Shown one piece after another: positions 6,886 through 31,724 of a stretch of DNA of 64,000 bases. Below the pieces are notes generated by a model, which saw nothing but the letters and a program-made list of their open reading frames with translations, was not told the origin of the DNA and ran no database searches. Source of the DNA: Planctomycetota bacterium (GTDB lineage Bacteria; Planctomycetota; UBA1135; UBA2386); contig OZ245006.1 in assembly GCA_965223545.1 (NCBI GenBank), forward strand, positions 5,664,001 through 5,728,000. Reading direction: 5' to 3'. The translations under genes were made by a program, and so were the position numbers. Each line of letters starts with the position of its first letter. Position 1 is the first letter of the stretch.

Positions 6886-7352
6886 CCCGGATCGCCACAC
6901 GACTCGCGCTGTTCATGTTGCTGGCGTCGGTTGCGGTCCCCGCCGCAGCGCAGAGCCCCGAGCGCACGCCGGACCAAATCCTCGCCGAGCTCAAGGACAC
7001 CATGGCGGAGCGCTACCCCGTGCTCGCCAAGCTGAAGGCCGCGGCCAAGGTCGGCGAGACCTACGAGGGTTTGGTGGGCGTCGTCAAGCCCGAGTTCGCC
7101 AAGCAGTCGACCAAGCCCGGCACCGAGGGGGCGCCGACCATCGGCCAGGTCGTCGACGCCGAGAACAAGGACCGGCGCGCGCTGTTCGCGGCACTGGCCA
7201 AGAAGACCGAAGTCGCCGTCGCCGAAGTCGCCAAGCAGAACGTGCTGCGGAACTTCAAGCGGGCGAAGCCAACAGAGTATCTGTTGGTGCGCAAGGGCAC
7301 GTGGATGCGAAAGCAAGACTTCGACGCCGCGCGCAAACGCAAGAAGAAGTGA
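6882..7352 (+). CDS. ydbL: YdbL family protein (DUF1318)
   Basis: Signal peptide; LKAAAKVGETYEGLV, VVDAENKDRRALFAALA, GTW; ATGA overlap with ynbE. Confidence 0.8.
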   Translation: MTRIATRLALFMLLASVAVPAAAQSPERTPDQILAELKDTMAERYPVLAKLKAAAKVGETYEGLVGVVKPEFAKQSTKPGTEGAPTIGQVVDAENKDRRALFAALAKKTEVAVAEVAKQNVLRNFKRAKPTEYLLVRKGTWMRKQDFDAARKRKKK

Positions 7353-7376
7353 GCGCGGCGCGCGCGGCGCTCCGCC

Positions 7377-8090
7377 TCAGGAGCCCGCGTCGAGCGTGCG
7401 CGCGCGCACCCGCAGGGCGCTGACGCGCGGCGCCGGCCGCGCCGCGCGCGGCCACGAACGCGGCACGGGCGTCGTGCCGGTCGACCGACTGTCCACGCAT
7501 CGCCAGAGCCACCGCGCGGCTTCGTTGCGGCCGAGGCCGATGCGGGGCGTCCAATGGGCGGCGCGGACCCGCGGCGCGGACTCGATCCAGATTCCGGCGG
7601 GCACGCAGAGCCGGGTACCGTCTCGGTCGAGGTCGATGCCCATGGCGGCGCACAGCTTGCCCGGACCGTTGGCGAGCTCGCGATCGAGGGCGCCGGCGCG
7701 CAGCAGTCGGCTGCGCTGGGAGGACGGTGTCGAGTCGGCGCGCGCTGCGCGCATCTGCGCCAGTCCGGAGACTGGCTCGATCGCGCGCAGCAGCACCGCG
7801 GTCCCCTCCGGGCCAGCGGTGACGTTGGCGCAGTGGTGGTTGCCGTAGGTGAAGTAGACGTAAATGTGGCCGGCGGGACCGAACATCGTGGCGCACCGCG
7901 CGGTCGGGCCACGGTATCCGTGCGCGGCCGGGTCGAGCCGGCCGGCGTAGGCCTCGGTCTCGACGATGCGTCCCGCCAGCCGCTGCTCCCCCTGCTGCAC
8001 GACGAGGTGCTGGCCGAGGAGGGCACGCGCCAGCCGCAGCACCGGCTGCTCGAAGAAGTCGGGCGCGAGGCTGCGCGCGGAGTTCGGCAT
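7377..8090 (-). CDS. DNA-3-methyladenine glycosylase (MPG/AAG family)
   Basis: ARALLG, GRIVETEAY, GHIYVYFTYGNHHCANV, VLLRAIEP, NGPGKLC, TPRIG. Confidence 0.93.
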   Translation of the reverse strand: MPNSARSLAPDFFEQPVLRLARALLGQHLVVQQGEQRLAGRIVETEAYAGRLDPAAHGYRGPTARCATMFGPAGHIYVYFTYGNHHCANVTAGPEGTAVLLRAIEPVSGLAQMRAARADSTPSSQRSRLLRAGALDRELANGPGKLCAAMGIDLDRDGTRLCVPAGIWIESAPRVRAAHWTPRIGLGRNEAARWLWRCVDSRSTGTTPVPRSWPRAARPAPRVSALRVRARTLDAGS

Positions 8091-8269: not shown

Positions 8270-8296
8270 TAGACGAACGACGGGGCTCGGCATTCC
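8270..8296 (-). promoter_or_regulatory. candidate ECF-sigma promoter GGAAT-N16-CGTCTA
   Basis: On the minus strand, -35 GGAAT (8296-8292), 16-nt spacer, -10 CGTCTA (8275-8270), 11 nt before ATG 8258. Confidence 0.45.
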
Positions 8297-8382
8297 CGAT
8301 TCGGCAAAAAGGGAGCCGGCTGGGACCGGCGCGGGTGGTCGGCTTGCCGGCGCCGGAGGCGCCCGAATAGAGTACGAGGCGC

Positions 8383-11300
8383 ATGCCAAGCTCCCTGCCG
8401 CGGTCGGTTCCGTTCGCGGTGTTGCTGTTCGCGACACCGGCATTCGCTCAGTTGTCCGAGTTGCTCGAACCGGTGCGATGGCGCGAGGTCGGGCCGTACC
8501 GAGGCGGGCGCGTCGCCGCGGTCTGCGGTCTGCCGGACGATCCTCAGACGTACTACTTCGGCGGCTGTGGGGGCGGCGTGTGGAAGACCACCGACGCCGG
8601 CCGCAATTGGCGCTGCGTGTCCGATGGCTTCTTCGGTGGTTCGATCGGCGCGGTCGCCGTGGCGCCGTCCGATCCCAACGTGGTCTACGTCGGCGGCGGC
8701 GAGAAGACCGTGCGCGGCAACGTGTCGCACGGCGACGGTGCGTGGCGCTCGGACGACGCCGGCCGCACGTGGCGGTCGATCGGGTTGGCCGACAGCCGGC
8801 ACATCTGCCGGATTCGCGTGCACCCGAGCGATCCCGACGTGGCCTATGCGGCGGTGTTGGGGCATCTGTTCGGCGACAACGCGGAGCGCGGCGTGTTCCG
8901 CACCAAGGATGGCGGCGCCAGCTGGCAGCGCGTGCTGCACGTCAACGACCAAGCCGGAGCGGTGGATCTCTGCATGGACCCGACCAATCCGCGCGTGCTC
9001 TACGCGTGCATGTGGCGCGTGCTGCGGACGCCGTACTCGCTGGAGAGCGGCGGCGAGGGCTCGGGGATCTGGAAGAGCACCGATGGCGGCGACGAGTGGG
9101 TCGAGATCGGCGGCAACCCGGGCTTGCCGACGGGCACGACCGGTATCAGTGGCATCTGTGTCTCGCCGACCGACCCCGACAACGTGTACGCCATCGTCGA
9201 AGCCGAGAAGGGGGGCGTCTTTCGCTCACGGGACGCGGGCGAAACGTGGACGCGAGTCAACGACGACCGGTCCCTGCGTCAACGCGCGTGGTACTACACC
9301 CGGATCTACGCCGATCCGGCCGACGCGGAGGCCGTCTACGTTCTCAACGTGGGCTTCCACCGCTCGGTCGACGGCGGCCGGACCTTCCGGCGCATCCGCA
9401 CACCGCACGGCGACAACCACGACCTGTGGATCGCGCCGGACGATCCGCGGCGGATGGTGCAGAGCAACGACGGCGGCGCCAATGTGAGCGAGGACGGCGG
9501 TGCGTCGTGGACTGCTCAGGACAACCAGCCGACCGCGCAGGTGTACCGCATCTCGGTCGACAACTCGTTTCCCTATCGCATCCTCGGCGCGCAGCAGGAC
9601 AACTCCGCGTTCCGGATTCGATCGCGCGGCGCCAGCGGCGGCGGCGTTGGAGTGCGCGATTGGGAGCCGACGGCGGGCGGCGAGAGCGGGCACATCGTGG
9701 CCAAGCCCGACGACAACGACATCGTGGTCGGCGGCAGCTACGGGGGGTTCTTGACCTGGCTCGACCACCGCACGCGGGAGCGCCGGGCGGTCAACGTCTG
9801 GCCCGACAACCCGATGGGTTGGGGCGCCGCGGACCTGCGCTACCGCTTCCAGTGGAACTTCCCGCTGTTCTTCTCGCCGCACGATCCCGACGTCCTCTAC
9901 GCCGCCGGCAACGTCCTCTTCGTCAGCCGTGACCTGGGCGCCAGCTGGCAGCCGATCAGTCCCGACCTGACCCGCGACGACAGCAGCCGCTTGGGGCCGT
10001 CGGGTGGGCCGATCACCAAGGACAACACCGGCGTCGAGTACTACTGCACGATCTTTGCCGCCGCCGAGTCCGCGCTCGAGCCGGGCCTGCTGTGGGCGGG
10101 ATCCGACGACGGCCTGCTGCACGTCTCCCGCGATGGCGGCGAACGGTGGCAGAACGTGACGCCGCCCGGCCTGCCGGAGTGGGCGCAGATCAACAGCATC
10201 GACGTCGACCCCTGGCGGCCAGGCGGTCTCTACGTCGCGGCGACGCGCTACAAGTCGGACGACTTCCGTCCGTACCTGTTCGCGACCGCCGACTACGGAG
10301 CGAGCTGGCGCGAGATCGTCGCGGGGATCGAGCCCGATCACTTCACCCGCGTCATCCGTGCCGATCCGGCGCGCGAGGGCTTGCTCTACGCCGGTACCGA
10401 ACGCGGGGTCTACGTGTCCTTCGATGACGGCGGCGTCTGGCAGTCGCTGCAGCTCGACTTGCCGGTGGCGCCGGTCACCGATCTGCAGGTCGCGCACGGC
10501 GACCTGATCGTCGCCACCCAGGGTCGCGGGATCTGGGTGCTGGACGACTTGGCGGTGGTGCACCAAGTGTCGCCGCGTGGGATCGCCGAACCGGTCGCTC
10601 TGCTGCAGCCCGAGCCCTGCTTCCGCCTGGTCACCGGCAGCCGTCGTCCGGCGCGCGGCGACGTCGAGCGGGCTTCGCCGGCGTCCGGCGCGGTGTTGTA
10701 CTACTGGTTGGCGGAGGAGCTCGAAGCCGACGCCGCGCTGACCCTGGAGATCCGCACCGCGGGTGGCGAGATCGTGCGGACGCTGCGGCGCGCGCGCGAT
10801 GAGTCCGAGACCGAGGACACCGAAGCCCGCGGCGCGGCGCGGCGGGATGCCGTGTTGGCGGCCGGCGCCGGATTGCACCGGGTCGAATGGGACCTGCGCT
10901 ACGGGGATGCGGAGGGGTTTCCGGGCATGGTGCTCTGGAACCGCCGCCTCACCGGACCCATGGCAGTGCCCGGTATGTACACGGTCCACTTGACGGCCGG
11001 CGAGCACCGCGCCGAGGCGGAGCTCGAAGTGCGCGCCGACCCGCGCTCTGGGTCGACGCCGGAGCACAGGGCAGCCCAGCTGCAGTTCTCGCTCGAGGTG
11101 CGCGACAAGCTCACCGAGACCCATCGGGCGATTGCGCGGTTGCGCACTGTGCGCAAGGGCATCGCGGCGTTGCTCGCGCGCGCGGATGGCATCGCCGACG
11201 GCGACGGCGTGCGCGACGCGGCGACCGCGCTGCGGGACGCGCTCACCGGGGTCGAGGAAGCGCTCTACCAGACCCAGAGCAAGAGCGCGCAAGACCCGCT

Positions 11301-22086: not shown

Positions 22087-22590
22087 ATGGCCGCCGCCGA
22101 TCCGCTCCCGCCAGATCCCTCCGCGCCCCGGCCCCGTCTCGAGCCGTCCGGTGGGGGATTGCCCGGGGACGACGAGCTGGCGCGGATCCGTGAGATCCTG
22201 GTCGGGGCGGCGCTGCGCCAGGTGAACGCGCGCTGCACGGTCTTGGCCGACCAGCTCGACGCCGGCCTGCGCGCGCTACGCGAGGACGTCGACCAGCGGT
22301 TGCGCCGCCTGGAGACGTCCGTCGAGCAGCGCTTGACGCAGCGCGACCGGGATCGGCAGGCCGTCGACGAGCGCGTGCGCGGTGAGCTGGCCGATCTGCG
22401 CGCCGCCTGGCGGCGCGAGCTCGAGGCCACGACCGAGCGCCTCGGCCGAGACGCGGCCTCCGCGATCGACGGGCTCCGGTCGCAAACGCTGGGGCGCGCC
22501 GATCTCGCCGCATTGCTGGCCGAGCTCGGCCAGCGGCTGGGCGACCGCGGCGACGAGGCCTCCGCCCGTGGAGAGCCCGGTGAGCGCTGA
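22087..22590 (+). CDS. coiled-coil protein, first gene of the Rab-like GTPase operon
   Basis: ELARIREILVG start, long helical body, RADLAALLAELGQRL end; overlaps the next gene; TACAAT -10-like element at 22062. Confidence 0.8.
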   Translation: MAAADPLPPDPSAPRPRLEPSGGGLPGDDELARIREILVGAALRQVNARCTVLADQLDAGLRALREDVDQRLRRLETSVEQRLTQRDRDRQAVDERVRGELADLRAAWRRELEATTERLGRDAASAIDGLRSQTLGRADLAALLAELGQRLGDRGDEASARGEPGER

Positions 22591-24274
22591 ACGCAACGGG
22601 GCGGGTGGGGTCCCGCCGGCCGAGCTGGCCGAGCTCCGCCGCCTTCTCTTCGGCAAGGAGCACGAGGGGCTCGATGAGCTGCGCGCGCGGTTCGGCGATC
22701 GGGAGCGGTTCGCGGAGGAGTTGGCGGGGCTCTTGCCGGAGCTGTTGGCGCGCCGCGAGCAGCCCGACGCGCGCCTCGGTCGCGCCCTGTCGCCGACCTT
22801 CGAGATGCTGCTGCGGGAGTCCGCCCGCCGCCATCCGGAGGTGATGCGCGACGCGGTGTTCCCGATTCTCGGGCCCGCGATCCGCAAGGCGGTCAGCGCG
22901 GCGATCGCCGGGTTGGCGCAATCGATCAATCGCACCCTCGAGGAGACGGTGTCGGTGCGCTCGATGCGGTGGCGCTTCCAGGCGTGGCGCACCGGCCGGT
23001 CGTTCTCCGACATCGTGCTGCTGCACAGCCTGCTCTACCGGGTCGAGCAGGTGTTCTTGGTTCACCGCGAGAGCGGTCTACTGCTGGCGCACGTGTCCGC
23101 GCAGGACGCGCCGCCGACCGCCCCCGACTTGGTCTCGGGAATGGTGACGGCGATCGGCGACTTCGCGCGCGACTCGCTTGGCTCCGGCGATGGCGAGCTG
23201 TCCAGCTTCCGCGTCGGCGACTTGACCATGCTCGTCGAGGGCGGGCCGCATGCCGTCGTCTGCGTCGCGGTGCGCGGCGTGCCGCCGGGCGACCTGCAGG
23301 CGCTGTTGGTGGAGACCGTCGAAGACGTGCACCGCGAGCTCGCCTCACCCCTGGCGGCCTTCGACGGCGACGCCACGGCGTTTCGCCGTGCCGAGCCGCT
23401 GCTCGAGCGATGCCTGCGCCAGCAACGCCGCCCGACGCGGCGCAGCCCGGTGGGTTGGGTGCTGATGGGCTCCGCCGCCGCGGCGCTCGTGGTGGGAGCG
23501 GTTTGGTGGTGGAGCCAGCGCTCCGCGCGCGACGCGCTGTGGCAGTCCTACCTGGAGCGGGTCGCGCAGGAGCCTGGCCTCCTGGTGGTCGACCAGCAGC
23601 GCGACGCCGGTGTCTATCGCTTGGTCGGGCTGGCCGATCCGCTGGCCGCCGATCCCGCGCAGCTGCTCGCCGACGCCGGTCTCGACCCGGCGCGGGTGTC
23701 GATGCGTTGGGAGCCGTACGCGGCGGCGGCATTCTTGTCGGCGCGGGCTCGCCGATTGCTCGAGGTGCCCGACAGCGTGCGGCTCGACGTGCGCGGCCAG
23801 ACCCTGGTGCTCACCGGCCACGCCGCGCCGCAGTGGGTCGCGGAGGCCGAGCGGCGCGCCCCGCTGCTCGGTGCGACCGACGTCGACAGCAGTGGTCTGG
23901 TGAGCGTCGATCTCGACGAGCTGCGCGTCTACCAAAAACGCGCCAACGCCCTGGTGCCCGCGTTCGGCGACGGCGTGACGGTTCTCGACTACGAGCGGCT
24001 ACGGCCGGTGGCCGATCTGTTGGCAGCCGCCGAGCGCTTGGCTCGTCAGGCCGGTGGCGGGCTCGCCGTAACTGTGTCGGGCTATGGCGACACCGGTGAC
24101 GCCGAGGCCGTCGCGTTGGTCACCGCGCGGCGGCGGGCAAACTTCGTGCGGCGCACCTTGGAGGAGTTGGTCGAATGGTCGGCAACCGTCTTCGAAGCGG
24201 AGGCGCGCGGCGATTTCGGCGGCGCGGGCAGCGTGCGGTTCGAGCTGCAATGGCGAGCGGAGGCCGGGCGGTGA
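22580..24274 (+). CDS. membrane protein with cytoplasmic helical + longin/roadblock-like domain, TM, and BON/OmpA-like periplasmic region
   Basis: ELRRLLFG; FPILGPAIRKAV; YRVEQVFLVHRESGLLL...DLVSGMVTAIGDFARDS; TM WVLMGSAAAALVVGAVWWW; OmpA-like VTVSGYGD...RRRANFV. Confidence 0.8.
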   Translation: MSAERNGAGGVPPAELAELRRLLFGKEHEGLDELRARFGDRERFAEELAGLLPELLARREQPDARLGRALSPTFEMLLRESARRHPEVMRDAVFPILGPAIRKAVSAAIAGLAQSINRTLEETVSVRSMRWRFQAWRTGRSFSDIVLLHSLLYRVEQVFLVHRESGLLLAHVSAQDAPPTAPDLVSGMVTAIGDFARDSLGSGDGELSSFRVGDLTMLVEGGPHAVVCVAVRGVPPGDLQALLVETVEDVHRELASPLAAFDGDATAFRRAEPLLERCLRQQRRPTRRSPVGWVLMGSAAAALVVGAVWWWSQRSARDALWQSYLERVAQEPGLLVVDQQRDAGVYRLVGLADPLAADPAQLLADAGLDPARVSMRWEPYAAAAFLSARARRLLEVPDSVRLDVRGQTLVLTGHAAPQWVAEAERRAPLLGATDVDSSGLVSVDLDELRVYQKRANALVPAFGDGVTVLDYERLRPVADLLAAAERLARQAGGGLAVTVSGYGDTGDAEAVALVTARRRANFVRRTLEELVEWSATVFEAEARGDFGGAGSVRFELQWRAEAGR

Positions 24275-24771
24275 AGCAGCTGAAAGTGTGCATGCTCGGC
24301 GCATACGCCGTCGGCAAGACCAGTCTCGTCTCTCGCTTCGTGGCCGGCGTGTTCTCCGAGCGCTACATCACCACGATCGGCGTCAAGATCGACCGCAAGG
24401 ACGTCGTCGTCGCCGATCACCACGTGCGGCTCGTGCTCTGGGACATCAACGGCGAGGATCGCTTCATCAAAGTGCAGCCGTCCTATGTCAAGGGCGCCAG
24501 TGCCTGTCTGCTGGTGGCGGACCCGACCCGCGGGGTGACGCTCGACGTGGTCGAGGACCTGCGCCGCCGTGCCCGCGATCACGCCGGCGACGTTCCCATG
24601 CAGGTCGTGCTCAACAAGCACGACCTGCTCGATGCCTGGGCCTTCGACGAGGATGCGGCGCGGGCCCGGTTCGGCGACCTCGAGGTGTGCACCACCAGCG
24701 CCAAGACCGGCGCCGGGGTCGAGGACATGTTCTGCGGGCTCGCGCGGCACTGCGTCGGCGGCGTGGGCTGA
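24271..24771 (+). CDS. Rab-like small GTPase (Ras superfamily)
   Basis: G1 GAYAVGKT, G2 YITTIG, G3 WDING, G4 NKHD, G5 TSAK; 166 aa; GTGA overlap with the upstream gene. Confidence 0.92.
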   Translation: MKQLKVCMLGAYAVGKTSLVSRFVAGVFSERYITTIGVKIDRKDVVVADHHVRLVLWDINGEDRFIKVQPSYVKGASACLLVADPTRGVTLDVVEDLRRRARDHAGDVPMQVVLNKHDLLDAWAFDEDAARARFGDLEVCTTSAKTGAGVEDMFCGLARHCVGGVG

Positions 24772-24889: not shown

Positions 24890-26812
24890 ATGCGTACCCA
24901 CCCAGTCCTGTCGCTCGTGCTGGCACTGCCGCTCGGCGCCCAGCCGCAGCTCGAGCGGCCGATTCCCTATCCGCTGCCACGAGATGCCGCTTGGGCCGCC
25001 GCGGTCGAAGCCGGAACCCGCACCGATCACGGTTCGCCGGGTGCCGCCTACTGGACCAACCGCGCGCACTACCGCTTGCGCGCCAGTCTGGATCCGGCGA
25101 CCGCGCAGGTGCGCGGCGAGGCCGAGATCACCTACCAGAACCGGTCGCCGCATCCGATCCGCACTCTCGTCGTGCACCTTCGCCAGAACGCACACAAGGA
25201 GGGCGCGCTCCGCAATCGCTACCTCGAGGTCACCGGCGGCGTGCAAGTCGAGGACGTGCGCGTCGGCGGTCAAGAGGTGCGGGACGGAGCGGCGCGCGGC
25301 GCGCGCGTCGAGCGGGGTGACGCCTCGATGCGCACGCGCGGCACCCTGATGTCGATCCGGCTCGCCGAGCCGCTGCCGCCGGGCGGCGAGACGCAGCTGT
25401 CGATGCGCTGGCAGTACCGCGTGCCGCGTCGCGGCGCGCCGCGCAACGGTCACGACGACCACCACACCTATTACCTCGGCTACTGGTATCCGCAGCTGGC
25501 CGTGTTCGAGGACGTCGCCGACGACTGGGTGGCGGAGCAGTACTTCAGCAACGCCGAGTTCTACATGGGCTACGGCAGCTACGACGTCGAGTTCAGCGTG
25601 CCCGCCGGGTGGCTCGTGCGGGCCACGGGGACGCTGCAGAACGCGGACGACGTGCTCACCGAAACCGCGCTCGAGCGCTTGGCCCAAGCGCGGGCCGGGC
25701 GCGACATCGTGCGCGTCATCGACGAAGACGATCTGGAGAACGGGCGAGTGACGCGCATGGATCGCGGCGACACGCTCACCTGGCACTTCAAGGCGGAGGA
25801 TGTGCGCGATTGCGCGGTGAGCATCTCCAACCGCTACGTCTGGGACGCGACCCACGCCGTGGTCGAGGCGGGTGCCGACGGCACGGCGCCGCGGAAGGCG
25901 ATGATCCACGCGGTCTACCGGCTCGACTCCGACTCGTTCGCCAAGGCGGCGGAGTACGGGCGCCACACCATCGAGTACATGTCGAAGCTGCTCACGCCGT
26001 ATCCGTGGCCGCACATGACGGTGTGCGGTGGCGTCATCGGCGGTGGCATGGAGTTCCCCATGATGACCATTTGCGGCAGTGGCAGTGCCGGCCTGGTCGC
26101 CCACGAGCTGATCCACATGTGGTTTCCGATGCTGGTCGGCACCAACGAGAAGGCGCGCGCGTGGCAGGACGAGGGCTTCACCAGCTTCTTCACCACTCTC
26201 TGCACGGCGGCACTCCGCGAGCGGCCGGAGTCGGCGTCAGGTGCGCTGCGCGGCTACCTGCGCGGAGCGGCCCGCGGCGAAGCCGCGCCGTTGATGCGTC
26301 ACGGCGACCGCTACCCCAACCGTGGGGTCTACGGGTTCGCCTCCTACTCGAAGAGCGCCGCGGTGCTGCACCAGCTGCGCGACCTCGTCGGTGATGACGT
26401 GTTCTTCGCGGTGTTCCGCCGCTATGTCGAGGAGTGGACGCACAAGCACCCCTATCCCGCCGACTTCTTCAACGCGTTCTCGCACGGCGCCGGCCGGGAC
26501 TTGAGCTGGTACTTCCGCACTTGGTACTACGAAACCTGGCAGCTGGACCAGGCGATCGAGTCGGTCGAGCAGAGCGGCGACGCCACGGTGGTGCGCGTCG
26601 CCGACATGCGGCGTGCCACCTACCCCACGATCGTCGAGGCCCGGTTTGCCGACGGCCGCGTGGAAACCGCCGAGATCGCCGTCGAGCACTGGTTGTCGGG
26701 GAAGCGCACGGCCGAGGTGCGGTTCGGTCCCGGGGTCGAGCGGGTCGAGCTCAACCCCGACCGGGCCACGCTGGACTTGTCGGCGGAAAACAACGCCTGG
26801 CCGCGGGAGTGA
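24890..26812 (+). CDS. secreted M1-family metallo-aminopeptidase
   Basis: Signal peptide; GGMEFP, HELIH followed 18 residues later by E (WQDEG), YSKSA. Confidence 0.92.
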   Translation: MRTHPVLSLVLALPLGAQPQLERPIPYPLPRDAAWAAAVEAGTRTDHGSPGAAYWTNRAHYRLRASLDPATAQVRGEAEITYQNRSPHPIRTLVVHLRQNAHKEGALRNRYLEVTGGVQVEDVRVGGQEVRDGAARGARVERGDASMRTRGTLMSIRLAEPLPPGGETQLSMRWQYRVPRRGAPRNGHDDHHTYYLGYWYPQLAVFEDVADDWVAEQYFSNAEFYMGYGSYDVEFSVPAGWLVRATGTLQNADDVLTETALERLAQARAGRDIVRVIDEDDLENGRVTRMDRGDTLTWHFKAEDVRDCAVSISNRYVWDATHAVVEAGADGTAPRKAMIHAVYRLDSDSFAKAAEYGRHTIEYMSKLLTPYPWPHMTVCGGVIGGGMEFPMMTICGSGSAGLVAHELIHMWFPMLVGTNEKARAWQDEGFTSFFTTLCTAALRERPESASGALRGYLRGAARGEAAPLMRHGDRYPNRGVYGFASYSKSAAVLHQLRDLVGDDVFFAVFRRYVEEWTHKHPYPADFFNAFSHGAGRDLSWYFRTWYYETWQLDQAIESVEQSGDATVVRVADMRRATYPTIVEARFADGRVETAEIAVEHWLSGKRTAEVRFGPGVERVELNPDRATLDLSAENNAWPRE

Positions 26813-26837: not shown

Positions 26838-27536
26838 CTACGCCGGCCGCTCGCGGAAGTCCAACCGCCCCCGCGATCGCCGCCACCCGCCCTTCAGCAG
26901 CCAAGTCCGCGCCCGCACCGTCGGCCGCGCCACCGGCTCCGACAGCTCCACCTCCTCACGCCACCCGTCGAACCAAGGCCCCGACGAGTAGACGTCGATC
27001 GCCTGCCGCGGCCGCTGCCGGTGGTGCCAAGCATTCTGCAGCACATACACCAACGCCCGCCGCACCTCCGTCGGCGAGCGCAGCACCCGCTCGTGAAACC
27101 GCTCGGCGAACACCCGCCCCGAGCGCCCCCAGAGCTTGTTCAACCCCCGCGCCATCCGCACCAACAGCCCGGTCATCCCCCGCGTCAACGCCTCCCGGTC
27201 CTTCGCCTCCACCAGCAAATGCAAGTGATCGCGCTGCACCGAGAACTCCACCAACCGAAACCCGAACCGCCCACACCCCGCCCGGATCCGCTCCACCAAC
27301 ATCCAGTACGTCCGCGCATTCCGCAGACTGGGCAACCCCCGACACAACCGCACCGTCAAGTGTAGGGGATACCGCGCCACCAACGCCCCCCGCGCCAAGT
27401 GCGGCACCGTCTCATCACTCACCTTGGGCCGCCCAGCCCCCTCCCGAGCCCCACCCCACTGCCGAAACGGCAGCTCGCCCTGCGCCACCCGACGGCGCCG
27501 TCCACCGCGCCGCGCTTGAACAGTCTTGTTCGTCAT
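26838..27536 (-). mobile_element. Y1/HUH tyrosine transposase (IS200/RAYT-like)
   Basis: PLHLTVR, HUH motif DHLHLLVE, GRVFAERFHERVL, catalytic Tyr in YVLQN; strong G/C strand skew unlike neighbouring genes. Confidence 0.85.
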
Positions 27537-27858
27537 TTGAATTAGCGACCTTATGAAACAGGAAGTGAACATGCAAGAACGCGACAAGAAAACCGGTCGG
27601 GAGGGCCGCCGACCGTGGCGGAGCTGAGGCGAATGCGCACGACTCCGCGACAAACGCCCCGTCTTGATTCCGCGACCTTCAGTTCAAGCCACGCACCCAA
27701 GCACGGCCCAGGACGACCCGCCGCCCGCAGGTCTGGATCCGGAGGCCGAGGGAGCGCGCACGCAGCACGCCCCAGGGCTTCCACCACCCCCAGCTCCAGA
27801 GCTGAAGGCTCGCCTTGGCACGCGAGCGCCGGAGGTTTGGAGAGACAGTGTCTCCTGG

Positions 27859-29153: not shown

Positions 29154-29543
29154 ATGGGTTTCATCCAAGAGTTCAAAGAGTTTGCGGTCAAAGGAAACAT
29201 GGTCGACATGGCGGTCGGCATCATCATCGGAGGTGCTTTCGGCACGGTGGTGAAGTCGCTGGTCGACGACCTCCTCATGCCCCCGCTCGGCTACCTGACC
29301 GGTGGAGTCGACTTCTCCGATGAGAAGCTGACCCTCGGCACCGACGAGCCGGTGGACATCACCTGGGGCAACTTCGTCAACAACCTGATCGCGTTCCTGA
29401 TCGTCGCGTTTGCGGTGTTCCTGCTGGTGAAGGGCATCAACGCGCTGCGTCGGGAAGAGGAAGAGAAGCCGGCGGCGCCGCCGGAGCCGAGCGACGAGGT
29501 CAAGCTGCTGACCGAGATTCGCGACGCGCTGCAGAAGGGCTGA
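29154..29543 (+). CDS. mscL: large-conductance mechanosensitive channel
   Basis: [41 protein letters not shown]. Confidence 0.97.
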
Positions 29544-29905: not shown

Positions 29906-30556
29906 TCAGTCGAGCGTGGTGAGTCCCACGCGAATGGCGAACTTCGTCAGCTCCGCGACGCTGCGGATCTCGAGCTTGTTCATGATGTTCTGCCGGTGGG
30001 TCTCGATGGTCTTGGCGCTGACGTGCAGGGTGGCGGCGATCTGCTTGGTGGACTTGCCCTCCGCCAGTAGCTGCAGCACTTCGCGCTCTTTGGGCGTCAG
30101 AATCGACGCTGGCCCGTCATCGGCGGTCTTCTGTAGCTTGCGCACGTAGTCATCGACGACGACTCCGGTGATTCCAGGGCTCAGGTAGACACCACCGCGC
30201 ATCACCTCGGTGACCGCGGTGGCGAGCTCGTCGAAGGCGCAGTCCTTGAGCAGGTAGCCGGTGGCCCCGGCCTCGAGCGCGCGGCCGACGAAGCTGGCGT
30301 CGGAATGCATCGACAGGGCGATCACGCGCGTGCGGTCGTGATCGCGGCGTAGCTGCCGCGTGGCTTCGATGCCGTTGAGCTCGGGCATCGCCACGTCCAT
30401 CACGACGAGGTCGGGCGTCAGCTTCTTCGCCAGCGCGACCGCTTCGCGGCCGTTGGTCGCTTGACCGACGACTTCGTGCCCGGCACTCGTCAGCAGGGTG
30501 CGCAGGCCGTCGCGCAGGATCTGGTGGTCGTCCGCCAGCAGGATGCGAATCGTCAT
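29906..30556 (-). CDS. NarL/FixJ-family response regulator
   Basis: ILLADDH, VVMDVAMPELNG, GYLLK, LuxR HTH LTPKEREVLQLLAEGKSTKQIA...KTIETHRQNIMNKL. Confidence 0.95.
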   Translation of the reverse strand: MTIRILLADDHQILRDGLRTLLTSAGHEVVGQATNGREAVALAKKLTPDLVVMDVAMPELNGIEATRQLRRDHDRTRVIALSMHSDASFVGRALEAGATGYLLKDCAFDELATAVTEVMRGGVYLSPGITGVVVDDYVRKLQKTADDGPASILTPKEREVLQLLAEGKSTKQIAATLHVSAKTIETHRQNIMNKLEIRSVAELTKFAIRVGLTTLD

Positions 30557-30584: not shown

Positions 30585-31724
30585 TCAATCGGAAAGTGGA
30601 ACGTGAATCGTGATGCGGGTGCCGGCGCCGGGCTGCGAATCGATCTCGAGCTGGCCGCCTGCGGTCTCGATGCGCTCGCGGACGCTGAACAGGCCGAAGC
30701 CGCCGCGCCGCGGCGCATCCGGGTCGAAGCCCTCGCCGTCGTCCTCGACCGTGACCCAGAGGCGCTCGTCGGCGCGCCAGGTGCGCACGCCCGCGCGGCT
30801 GGCGCCGGCGTGCTTGACCACGTTGTGCAGCACCTCGCGCACCGCTTGGAACACCAGCGAGCGGGTCGCCGGCTGTAGCGGTTTGGCGGTGCCGTCGTCG
30901 CCGTAGTCGGTGTGGATGCGGTCGCGCGCGCCGACCCGCTCGACCAGGCTCTGTAGTGCGGCCTCGAGGCCGAGCTCGTGCAACAGCGGTGGTGCCAGCT
31001 CGGCAGTCAGGTCGCGCGTCAAGGCGATGGTCTCGTCGAGCAGATCGCGCACCGTGGCGAGGCGATCGCCTTGCTCGGCACCGGCTGCCGATTGCCCGAG
31101 CCAGCCGATCTGCAGCTTGGCCAACGCCAGGTTCTGGCCGATGCCGTCGTGCAGCAGGGCTGCCAGTCGGTTGCGCTCGCGATGCTCGGCGCGGGTGACC
31201 GCTTCAGTGAGCTGGCGCAACTCGTCCTGGTAGGCGACGAGCCGTGCGTGCACGCGCCGGCGCTCGGCGATCTCTGCCTGCAGCCGCGCGTTGGTCTCGA
31301 TCAGCGCGGCGGTGTGCTCCCGCTCGGACTGCTCGAACTCGAGGCTGCTCTCGCGCGCCGTCTGCAGGATGGCGTGCAGCTGCTCGTGCGCGCGGTCGGC
31401 CAGCGCCAGCAGCACTAGCCGCCGCTCTGGAGTGCGGACCGCGATCGCTTCGAGGTGGCACGGCCGCTGCTCTCGGTCGTCCTGCGTCCACTCCCCGGAG
31501 CGGACGGAGCGGACTTCACCGCCGCTCCAGACGGCTTTCGCCTCACCGAGAAACTGCGCCAAGTAGGGCAGCTCCGCCGCCAGGTCGACGCGGTCGCCGT
31601 CCAGCTGGGGCATGCGCGCGAGCAACGCTTCCGGCAGGGGGCGGACGGGCCGGTACCATGGGCCACCCAGCGGCGCGAAGGCCGCCAGCCCCAGCGCGGA
31701 GATCAGCTGGTCTTGGGAGTGCAT
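30585..31724 (-). CDS. cytoplasmic sensor histidine kinase (HisKA_3/NarX-type) with unusual N-terminal domain
   Basis: ERNRLAALLHDGIGQNL, EVLHNVVKHAGA, DDGEGF, GFGLFSVRER, PGAGT; no TM segment. Confidence 0.92.
   Translation of the reverse strand: MHSQDQLISALGLAAFAPLGGPWYRPVRPLPEALLARMPQLDGDRVDLAAELPYLAQFLGEAKAVWSGGEVRSVRSGEWTQDDREQRPCHLEAIAVRTPERRLVLLALADRAHEQLHAILQTARESSLEFEQSEREHTAALIETNARLQAEIAERRRVHARLVAYQDELRQLTEAVTRAEHRERNRLAALLHDGIGQNLALAKLQIGWLGQSAAGAEQGDRLATVRDLLDETIALTRDLTAELAPPLLHELGLEAALQSLVERVGARDRIHTDYGDDGTAKPLQPATRSLVFQAVREVLHNVVKHAGASRAGVRTWRADERLWVTVEDDGEGFDPDAPRRGGFGLFSVRERIETAGGQLEIDSQPGAGTRITIHVPLSD

Follow-up and report, generated by a model that had tools for sequence, protein, structure and literature searches.

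Group 1 Rups are Rab-like prokaryotic small GTPases. In passages of the paper by Wuichet and Sogaard-Andersen (PMC4316618) they are proposed to be the closest prokaryotic relatives of Rab, Ran, Ras and Rho, and none had been characterised at the time of publication. The same passages describe them as encoded with a coiled-coil protein, DUFY, and with a second protein in which DUFX is often followed by a transmembrane (TM) helix and an OmpA domain; a fourth gene in these loci encodes a kinase or a cyclic di-GMP (c-di-GMP) enzyme with an invariant Gln. Membrane signalling akin to that of the conservon was proposed, for a set of 27 members whose listing in Table S2 is without Planctomycetes. We analysed a locus of this kind in a window of 64,000 nucleotides (nt), meaning the whole stretch studied here, from a Planctomycetota bacterium (assembly GCA_965223545.1, contig OZ245006.1, positions 5,664,001 to 5,728,000). 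Three overlapping genes at 22087-24771 of the window, together with a kinase gene, are a further copy of this known module, which was described computationally in 2014. Our models and searches suggest three additions to the published account: a longin fold for DUFX, a predicted docking site for the GTPase, and a fourth gene of the module within the window.

An earlier note on this DNA had put the three genes forward as an uncharacterised system, and had held that GTPases of this family were catalogued as stand-alone proteins. Neither statement survives comparison with the 2014 paper, passages of which already give the Group 1 Rup neighbourhood, in the order DUFY>DUFX:OmpA>Rup, along with the proposal of membrane signalling. 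We found no later study of Group 1 Rups in the literature after that paper. Its main text has 0 occurrences of the word 'longin' and leaves DUFX without a fold, and we found no published longin reading of DUFX, though supplements outside our search or subscription papers may hold one. The DUFX family is not named in passages of PMC3521125, PMC10933270, PMC3747258, PMC4915359, PMC8382908, PMC13734099, PMC13408092, 10.1101/2020.10.19.343400 or 10.64898/2026.10.19.760177. Passages of the literature do weigh against the novelty of a longin reading as such: 48% of the longin/roadblock eukaryotic signature proteins belong to clusters with members from all four lineages, a frequent association of profilin-longin-like domains with GTPases is claimed for all of life, and prokaryotic members of the longin/roadblock/profilin superfamily beside GTPases were already known.

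The triplet and its Rup GTPase

The triplet consists of the following genes:

22087-22590, + strand: gene A (DUFY), 167 amino acids (aa), a cytoplasmic amphipathic helical protein, likely an adaptor
22580-24274, + strand: gene B (DUFX:OmpA), 564 aa from GTG, with N-terminal helices, longin, TM helix, BON-like repeats and OmpA-like domain
24271-24771, + strand: gene C (Group 1 Rup), 166 aa from GTG, a Rab-like small GTPase

The three overlapping open reading frames reported by the earlier note are real and lie at these coordinates, with overlaps of 11 nt between A and B and 4 nt (GTGA) between B and C; one database record starts gene B 4 codons earlier, giving 568 aa. None of the three genes has a second copy in the 8.1 Mb genome, and the segment 21500-26861 is covered, with zero differences, by contigs from three of four public runs (one sample, possibly the source of the assembly). 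A search for signals found no sigma-70 promoter, and terminators at chance level (6 versus 4.2).

A locus search with the single sequence gave nothing, whereas an alignment-based search worked, and we surveyed the best 80 of at least 581 confirmed stretches. In 65 of these 80 loci B has A on one side and C on the other; nine more are cut by contig ends and six are without one or both neighbours. Because the gene order is kept across phyla, the triplet is not a chance arrangement. Among 251 genomes of the same phylum (14 candidates scored per genome, with related genomes not independent of one another, and with two weak partial Rup matches in long frames set aside), the longin domain of B and a full-length Rup are present in 13 each, and 12 genomes have both. 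Among 41 relatives the longin is found in five, and Rup in the same five.

The GTPase has all five G boxes (G1 GAYAVGKT at 10, G2 Thr35, G3 DING at 58, G4 NKHD at 115 and G5 SAK at 143), and matches Pfam Ras with an E-value of 5.7e-29. Its length lies inside the range of 150-240 aa of the Group 1 Rup single-domain GTPases. Its closest sequences in the PDB are Rabs, with Rab23 first (E = 1e-24). All five of the RabF-like strings quoted earlier are present, and their likeness to the eukaryotic RabF motifs is partial (IGVKI against IGVDF in Rab23, YVKGA against YYRGA). The G3 box reads DINGE, with Glu62 at the place of the catalytic Gln of the Ras family; Gln stands there in only 5 of 69 relatives. 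According to passages of PMC4915359, eukaryotic Rabs have a C-terminal cysteine prenylation motif and a hypervariable tail. A prenylation-type C-terminal Cys motif is absent from this Rup, which ends in ...ARHCVGGVG, and a two-Cys motif occurs in 0 of 69 relatives' C-termini. The gene order, the G motifs and the missing G3 Gln fit Group 1, in agreement with the earlier assignment to the Rup family. A quick tree built from the Rup sequences of this analysis, including Nostocaceae and Nitrospira copies and without eukaryotic or Asgard rows, was poorly resolved; the only grouping that it shows is that of the window copy with the copy of family relative G009.

Gene A matches, with E = 6e-19, a hidden Markov model (HMM) made solely from genes upstream of B homologs. 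It has a helical period of 3.6-3.67 (p = 0.0015 against 2000 shuffles), and the heptad signal (3.5) is slight. A similar helix opens both A (22171-22206, LARIREILVG) and B (22625-22660, LAELRRLLFG), and is seen in the family consensus lines as well. As a sequence pattern it may be a pairing motif; an HMM comparison of the two N-termini gave -0.4 bits, which is not significant, and the likeness is suggestive at most.

Gene B: longin fold, predicted GTPase dock and periplasmic part

Homologs of gene B numbered 382 among 8000 scored candidates, most of them with a Pfam OmpA domain. We modelled B with AlphaFold2 (AF2) from a 72-row alignment, obtaining a mean predicted local distance difference test (pLDDT) score of 82.9 and a predicted template modelling (pTM) score of 0.39; because the pTM is this low, the orientations of the domains to one another are unreliable. 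The topology of the model, its fold matches and the predicted complex described below place the following domain:

23027-23437, + strand: longin-fold domain of gene B (residues about 150-286)

Residues 155-280 of the model have the order bb-a-bbb-aa (strands 155-166 and 172-177, helix 186-203, strands 213-216, 219-225 and 229-237, helices 241-263 and 270-280). Passages of PMC3747258 give this same order for longins, and a-bb-a-bbb-a for roadblocks. When the predicted model was compared with 48,161 chains, the best fold match of DUFX was the VAMP7 longin (Z = 13.3, root-mean-square deviation (rmsd) 2.4, 118 residues aligned). CPLANE and Sec22 both scored 12.8, and an alignment at this Z had rmsd 2.8 and 123 residues aligned; these matches cover the full longin domain. 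Other matches were a Lokiarchaeal longin (11.6), TRAPP (11.0) and MON1A (10.5). MglB-type roadblocks reached Z = 11.3 in an alignment that ends before alpha3, whereas the longin alignments extend through alpha3. A Foldseek search agrees with the longin fold. As modelled, DUFX is a longin fold and not the roadblock permutation, which bears out the earlier description of the cytoplasmic part of B as longin-like. We rejected a specific link to Rab23 and CPLANE, the top sequence match of the GTPase and one of the top fold matches of its partner, as rows within 1 Z of each other are tied. Proof of longin homology at the sequence level was attempted and not obtained, the Atlas leads for it being <0.9; because there is no such link, common descent of DUFX with longins rests on fold and context. 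With E up to 0.001, the bacterial family matched by the longin profile numbers 5821 clusters when grouped at 50% identity. One member, P0124 (2171 aa), has three longin-profile matches together with DUF5915 and CARDB, an architecture unlike the membrane OmpA form.

To model the complex we used two copies of B residues 120-288 and one Rup, as three chains, with alignments made by us. The model scored 0.72, compared to 0.00 for the best control; among reference pairs, 116 of 157 solved ones and 2 of 215 mismatched ones come up to this mark, rates that are only rough for a three-chain job with such alignments. At least 96% of the contacts were common to the runs, and the partner pLDDT was at least 78. 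On the longin side the predicted contacts involve alpha1 of both copies (181-198), the beta1-beta2 hairpin (164-168) and the alpha2-alpha3 loop (262-265), and on the Rup side they involve residues 1-5, 27-42, 53-57 and 69-77, which cover switch I and beta2-beta3 together with the last part of switch II. In both proteins conservation is higher at the interface than elsewhere: 0.83 for 22 longin residues versus 0.62 for the other 108 (p = 0.0005), and, with G motifs excluded, 0.82 for 26 Rup residues versus 0.59 for the other 116 (0 of 20000 permutations). The alpha1 face is the GTPase surface described for Mon1-Ccz1 and TRAPP in passages of PMC5216073, and for longin/roadblock dimers generally in passages of PMC3747258. 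The model supports binding of the GTPase by the cytoplasmic part of B, which the earlier note saw as its regulator, and predicts docking on the alpha1 face of a longin dimer. A correlation between longin and Rup distances (Mantel 0.52) was dropped as evidence, being explained by shared ancestry.

The predicted arrangement resembles TRAPP (Bet5/Trs23-Ypt1) and Mon1-Ccz1-Ypt7, as described in passages of PMC5216073 and PMC3747258, in its longin fold (Z 10.5-11.0), in the seating of the GTPase on paired alpha1 helices with small alpha1 residues and with more contacts to one copy, and in the extra contact from the alpha2-alpha3 loop. It differs in being a predicted homodimer whose parent protein crosses the membrane once and continues into the periplasm, with no sequence similarity detected. 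Compared with passages on Mon1-Ccz1-Ypt7, there is no Ypt7-type lysine, and the alpha2-alpha3 loop is predicted to meet the N-terminus of the GTPase and not its alpha3-beta5 loop. MglA/MglB and the actinobacterial conservon likewise place a bacterial small GTPase on a longin/roadblock platform linked to a histidine kinase, and the analogy with the conservon (roadblock, small GTPase and kinase) was already drawn in passages of PMC4316618; unlike those systems, the GTPase here is Rab-like with the G3 Asp, and its partner has the longin and not the roadblock permutation. Asgard archaea share with our locus a prokaryotic longin fold (Lokiarchaeal Z = 11.6) and unprenylated Rab-like GTPases, according to passages of PMC10933270 and PMC4915359. 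In the Asgard archaeon MK-D1, GTPase genes are generally outside longin operons, making pairing hard (passages of PMC10933270), whereas here the longin-GTPase pair is co-encoded across many bacterial phyla.

The remainder of gene B is laid out as follows:

23450-23506, + strand: single TM helix of B (residues 291-309), from hydropathy and a long helix in the model
23525-23905, + strand: two periplasmic alpha/beta repeats, probably BON-like, with boundaries inferred from the model
23906-24250, + strand: OmpA-like C-terminal domain, with Asp504 and Arg519 kept and the family Asn512 lost

Residues 291-309 are the sole clearly hydrophobic stretch of B (best 19-residue Kyte-Doolittle mean 1.88). 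Foldseek matches the repeats to Rv0899, DolP, OsmY and BonA (E = 2e-6 to 1e-3), and Pfam BON stretches lie below the cut-off in 3 of 28 longer homologs. The Pfam OmpA match is weak (E = 0.019, below the cut-off), and the fold search confirms an OmpA-like end, with Z = 12.1 to OmpA-C, rmsd 2.6 and 106 residues aligned. Hydropathy and folds agree with the order proposed earlier, from a cytoplasmic domain through one TM helix to BON-like and OmpA-like parts. In family relative G017 (locus L092), B has a different C-terminal region with no OmpA motif, and two DUFY-like matches lie at 7250-7624 and 8285-8962.

The fourth gene of the module

Most of the genes that follow Rup in related loci belong to one of two clusters: the larger has 51 genes, with N-terminal domains of two types (here D1 and D2), and the smaller has eight genes, from Gemmatimonadota. 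A D1 profile built from genes downstream of other Rups, with the window excluded, gave a single strong match in the genome (E = 2e-28), and this match is the first of two adjacent genes in the window:

30585-31724, - strand: fourth-component kinase, 379 aa, with a PAS-like domain, a helix with Gln121 and Arg124, HisKA_3 and HATPase_c (Pfam)
29906-30556, - strand: NarL/LuxR-type response regulator, 216 aa (Pfam Response_reg and GerE), beginning 28 nt after the kinase stop

By this profile match the fourth gene of the module lies in the window, outside the triplet coordinates of the earlier note; the NarL-type regulator is the likely final output. The D1 model consists of a PAS-like domain and a long helix (pLDDT 91.8); its best Z, 8.4, is middling, and the top rows are nearly all PAS. 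In the helix, Gln121 is kept in 96% (46 aligned relatives) and Arg124 in 91%. The kinase adjoins the module in three of four family relatives, where regulator orthologs with 61-74% identity are also found. Kinase, regulator, Rup, A and B are all on one strand in G011 and G017, and in G009 the triplet and the kinase pair face each other about 1 kb apart. The locus is like the published Group 1 Rup neighbourhood in its three genes, their order, their domain layout, the lack of the G3 Gln, and an output gene with a conserved Gln in its N-terminal region. It is unlike the published loci in having as output a HisKA_3 kinase plus NarL-type regulator, encoded on the other strand at a distance of 5.8 kb.

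Either D1 or D2 is present in 63 of the 80 loci, the profiles being derived from these same loci. In the survey of 251 genomes D1 occurs in 12, all with Rup and 11 with longin, and it lies within about 2 kb of Rup in 11 phylum genomes other than this one; among the 41 relatives it is found in four of the five that have longin and Rup, the exception being a genome that is 69% complete. Two Rup genes lie near one longin gene at G118:C54:116249-121547 and in L061, and in G118 a D1 follows each Rup. The outputs joined to D1 vary: among 46 proteins there are 22 with HATPase_c, seven with HD-GYP, three with SpoIIE, three sigma-54 activators, and 11 without a Pfam match at 1e-6. At L006:5710-6186 and L047:5879-6325, upstream of the triplet, D1 makes up a protein of about 150 aa by itself and is joined to no output domain. 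D2 was not found in this genome by a profile search. Where it occurs, it is fused before D1 or is a small separate gene ahead of it, and it ends in a Gln-rich helix (L032, L034, L046, L063 and L075; L033, L041, L066 and L068). In the eight Gemmatimonadota copies (L005, L008, L018, L023, L030, L040, L053 and L067) a PP2C-type gene follows Rup, both of the two checked being PP2C, and D1 and D2 are absent within these loci as far as the loci extend. A Mesorhizobium plasmid copy in RefSeq is annotated as hypothetical, OmpA family, Rab family GTPase and adenylate/guanylate cyclase.

The triplet is separated from the kinase/regulator pair by 5.1 kb with other genes, one of them for a multicopy transposase:

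24890-26812, + strand: M1 peptidase, directly after Rup
26838-27653, - strand: IS200-like (Y1_Tnp) transposase, with 11 further copies of at least 750 nt at 88-94% identity
27859-29097, - strand: DUF1570 protein
29154-29543, + strand: mscL

We rejected the M1 peptidase, the transposase, the DUF1570 gene and mscL as members of the module, as none of them has a match beside it in any of the four family relatives.

A proposed trans-envelope relay and its rivals

We favour, with a probability of about 0.6, the reading that the Group 1 Rup module is a trans-envelope relay, in which an envelope signal would pass through the longin platform to the GTPase and from there to the kinase and its regulator. 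The B protein, probably dimeric, would reside in the inner membrane, its BON/OmpA-like part outside and its longin inside, an orientation that we infer for the predicted folds. The paired alpha1 helices of two longins would form the platform, and Rup would meet it with switch I, beta2-beta3 and the last part of switch II. An envelope cue would alter the B dimer such that the platform loads GTP on Rup, as TRAPP and Mon1-Ccz1 do. Whether the platform acts in this way, in the role of a GEF (guanine nucleotide exchange factor), we regard as an even call, with a GTPase-activating protein (GAP) platform or a plain anchor making up the other half. GTP-loaded Rup would then act on the module-specific PAS-like domain of the kinase, as co-occurrence and gene order suggest, and the HisKA_3 kinase would phosphorylate the NarL-type regulator, leading to a change in transcription. 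The Gln/Arg helix of the output may supply in trans the catalytic Gln that Rup lacks, a hypothesis put forward in passages of PMC4316618. Gene A would be a helical adaptor, probably on the N-terminal helices of B.

Several observations weigh against this relay. The profile of DUFX has 0 matches to PDB sequences at E up to 10, and among 67 DUFX members Pfam Fuz_longin_1 appears in one (E = 0.016) and Robl_LC7 in two (E about 0.02). The complex score may reflect likeness to known structures, because like complexes (TRAPP-Ypt1, Mon1-Ccz1-Ypt7 and MglB-MglA) have already been solved, and the conservation test used alignments that also fed the complex model. Longin/roadblock platforms also serve as GAP platforms or passive docks (passages of PMC3747258), and Rup position 33, which matches the Ypt7 exchange lysine, is His in 36, Leu in 21 and Gln in 8 of 69 relatives. 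The kinase is 5.8 kb from the Rup gene on the opposite strand, and no listed contig spans the transposase repeat between them; read depth is similar on both sides of it in three of four runs. At the periplasmic end, the column of residue 512 has Asn in 75 of the 75 relatives with a residue there, and the window copy has lost it. Of 74 distant homologs 68 retain the Asp504/Arg519 pair, and of four family relatives only one does; among the 27 Group 1 entries in the literature, 10 give DUFX without OmpA (passages of PMC4316618, Table S2). The wall link is the weakest step of the mechanism in this lineage.

The step from longin dimer to GTP loading has its own competitor, which we consider possible but unlikely: the dimer could be a GAP platform of the MglB kind, or could do no more than dock Rup at the membrane in place of prenylation, keeping it away from its output until release. 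MglB is close in structure (Z = 11.3) and, in passages on it, is a non-catalytic GAP platform of the same geometry; a Rup with neither the G3 Gln nor the C-terminal Cys motif would suit such a partner, and so would the absence of the Ypt7-type lysine. The conserved longin Arg and Gln residues (132, 137, 154, 157 and 232) all lie outside the predicted interface, which fits a passive platform. However, a true longin dimer with a Rab-type GTPase bound on alpha1 is typically a GEF, and the predicted interface includes Phe28 and Tyr32, which correspond by spacing to Phe33 and Tyr37 of Ypt7, Tyr37 being needed for exchange (both according to passages of the literature). A different doubt concerns the input. 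That the cue in this lineage is something other than peptidoglycan, the OmpA end having decayed or been swapped and another periplasmic or membrane cue having taken over, seems unlikely to us, and would be compatible with a GEF or a GAP. The loss of the Asp/Arg pair in three of four family relatives, the lost Asn512 and the published entries without OmpA all favour it, and the window copy has the family's commonest residue at 22% of positions in the OmpA region versus 52% in the longin region. Nevertheless, the fold is predicted to be intact, and Asp504 and Arg519 keep the 15-residue spacing of AbOmpA Asp271 and Arg286, which bind diaminopimelate according to passages of PMC12108004; the genome also has murE and two SEDS genes. 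No class A transglycosylase was found in it. The peptidoglycan-binding-type end claimed earlier for B stands as to its fold and its Asp/Arg pair, and is eroded in this lineage.

The earlier note also saw the module as a possible polarity switch, and two things favour a polarity or motility role like that of MglA/MglB in Myxococcus: the module pairs a small GTPase with a partner of longin/roadblock fold, and poles or septa can be sites of OmpA/BON proteins. Such a role is unsupported and, in our estimate, quite improbable: the proteins with the PAS-like domain carry HATPase_c, HD-GYP, SpoIIE and sigma-54 activator outputs, PP2C or cyclase genes replace them elsewhere, and the genome has its own roadblock - MglA-like GTPase - roadblock locus (G000:C1:5282676-5284800) about 400 kb from the module. 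Its two Robl_LC7 matches sit at that locus, so Rup is not coupled to an MglB gene. Least probable of all, and close to negligible, is a true Rab with a trafficking role, whether acquired from a eukaryote or at work in the membrane traffic of a planctomycete-type cell. Rabs as closest PDB sequences, the RabF-like strings and a host with planctomycete-type gene families (14 DUF1501 and 9 PSCyt1 matches over the cut-off) speak for it. Against it are the lack of the G3 Gln and of a prenylation motif, the wiring of the module to bacterial two-component and second-messenger outputs, and its presence in only 13 of 251 phylum genomes yet in many unrelated phyla.

The window copy is an ordinary member, and the interest of the locus lies in a reading at the level of the family. 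Tentatively, and with more doubt than confidence, we suggest that the widespread bacterial pair of a longin and a Rab-like GTPase is a GEF module with the geometry and ancestry of TRAPP and Mon1-Ccz1, in which an envelope receptor drives interchangeable outputs through a PAS-like effector domain. Longins were described as absent from prokaryotes in 2013 (passages of PMC3747258), and an archaeal origin is now favoured for the roadblock/longin families (passages of PMC10933270). The longin fold, the co-encoded GTPase and an interface predicted at the level of residues make the function of Rups testable with small soluble proteins, and the same proteins could be used to test whether longin-Rab exchange predates eukaryotes in bacteria. 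If the suggestion is true, the module would be the simplest natural longin-Rab exchange system, and one that lies outside eukaryotes and Asgard archaea.

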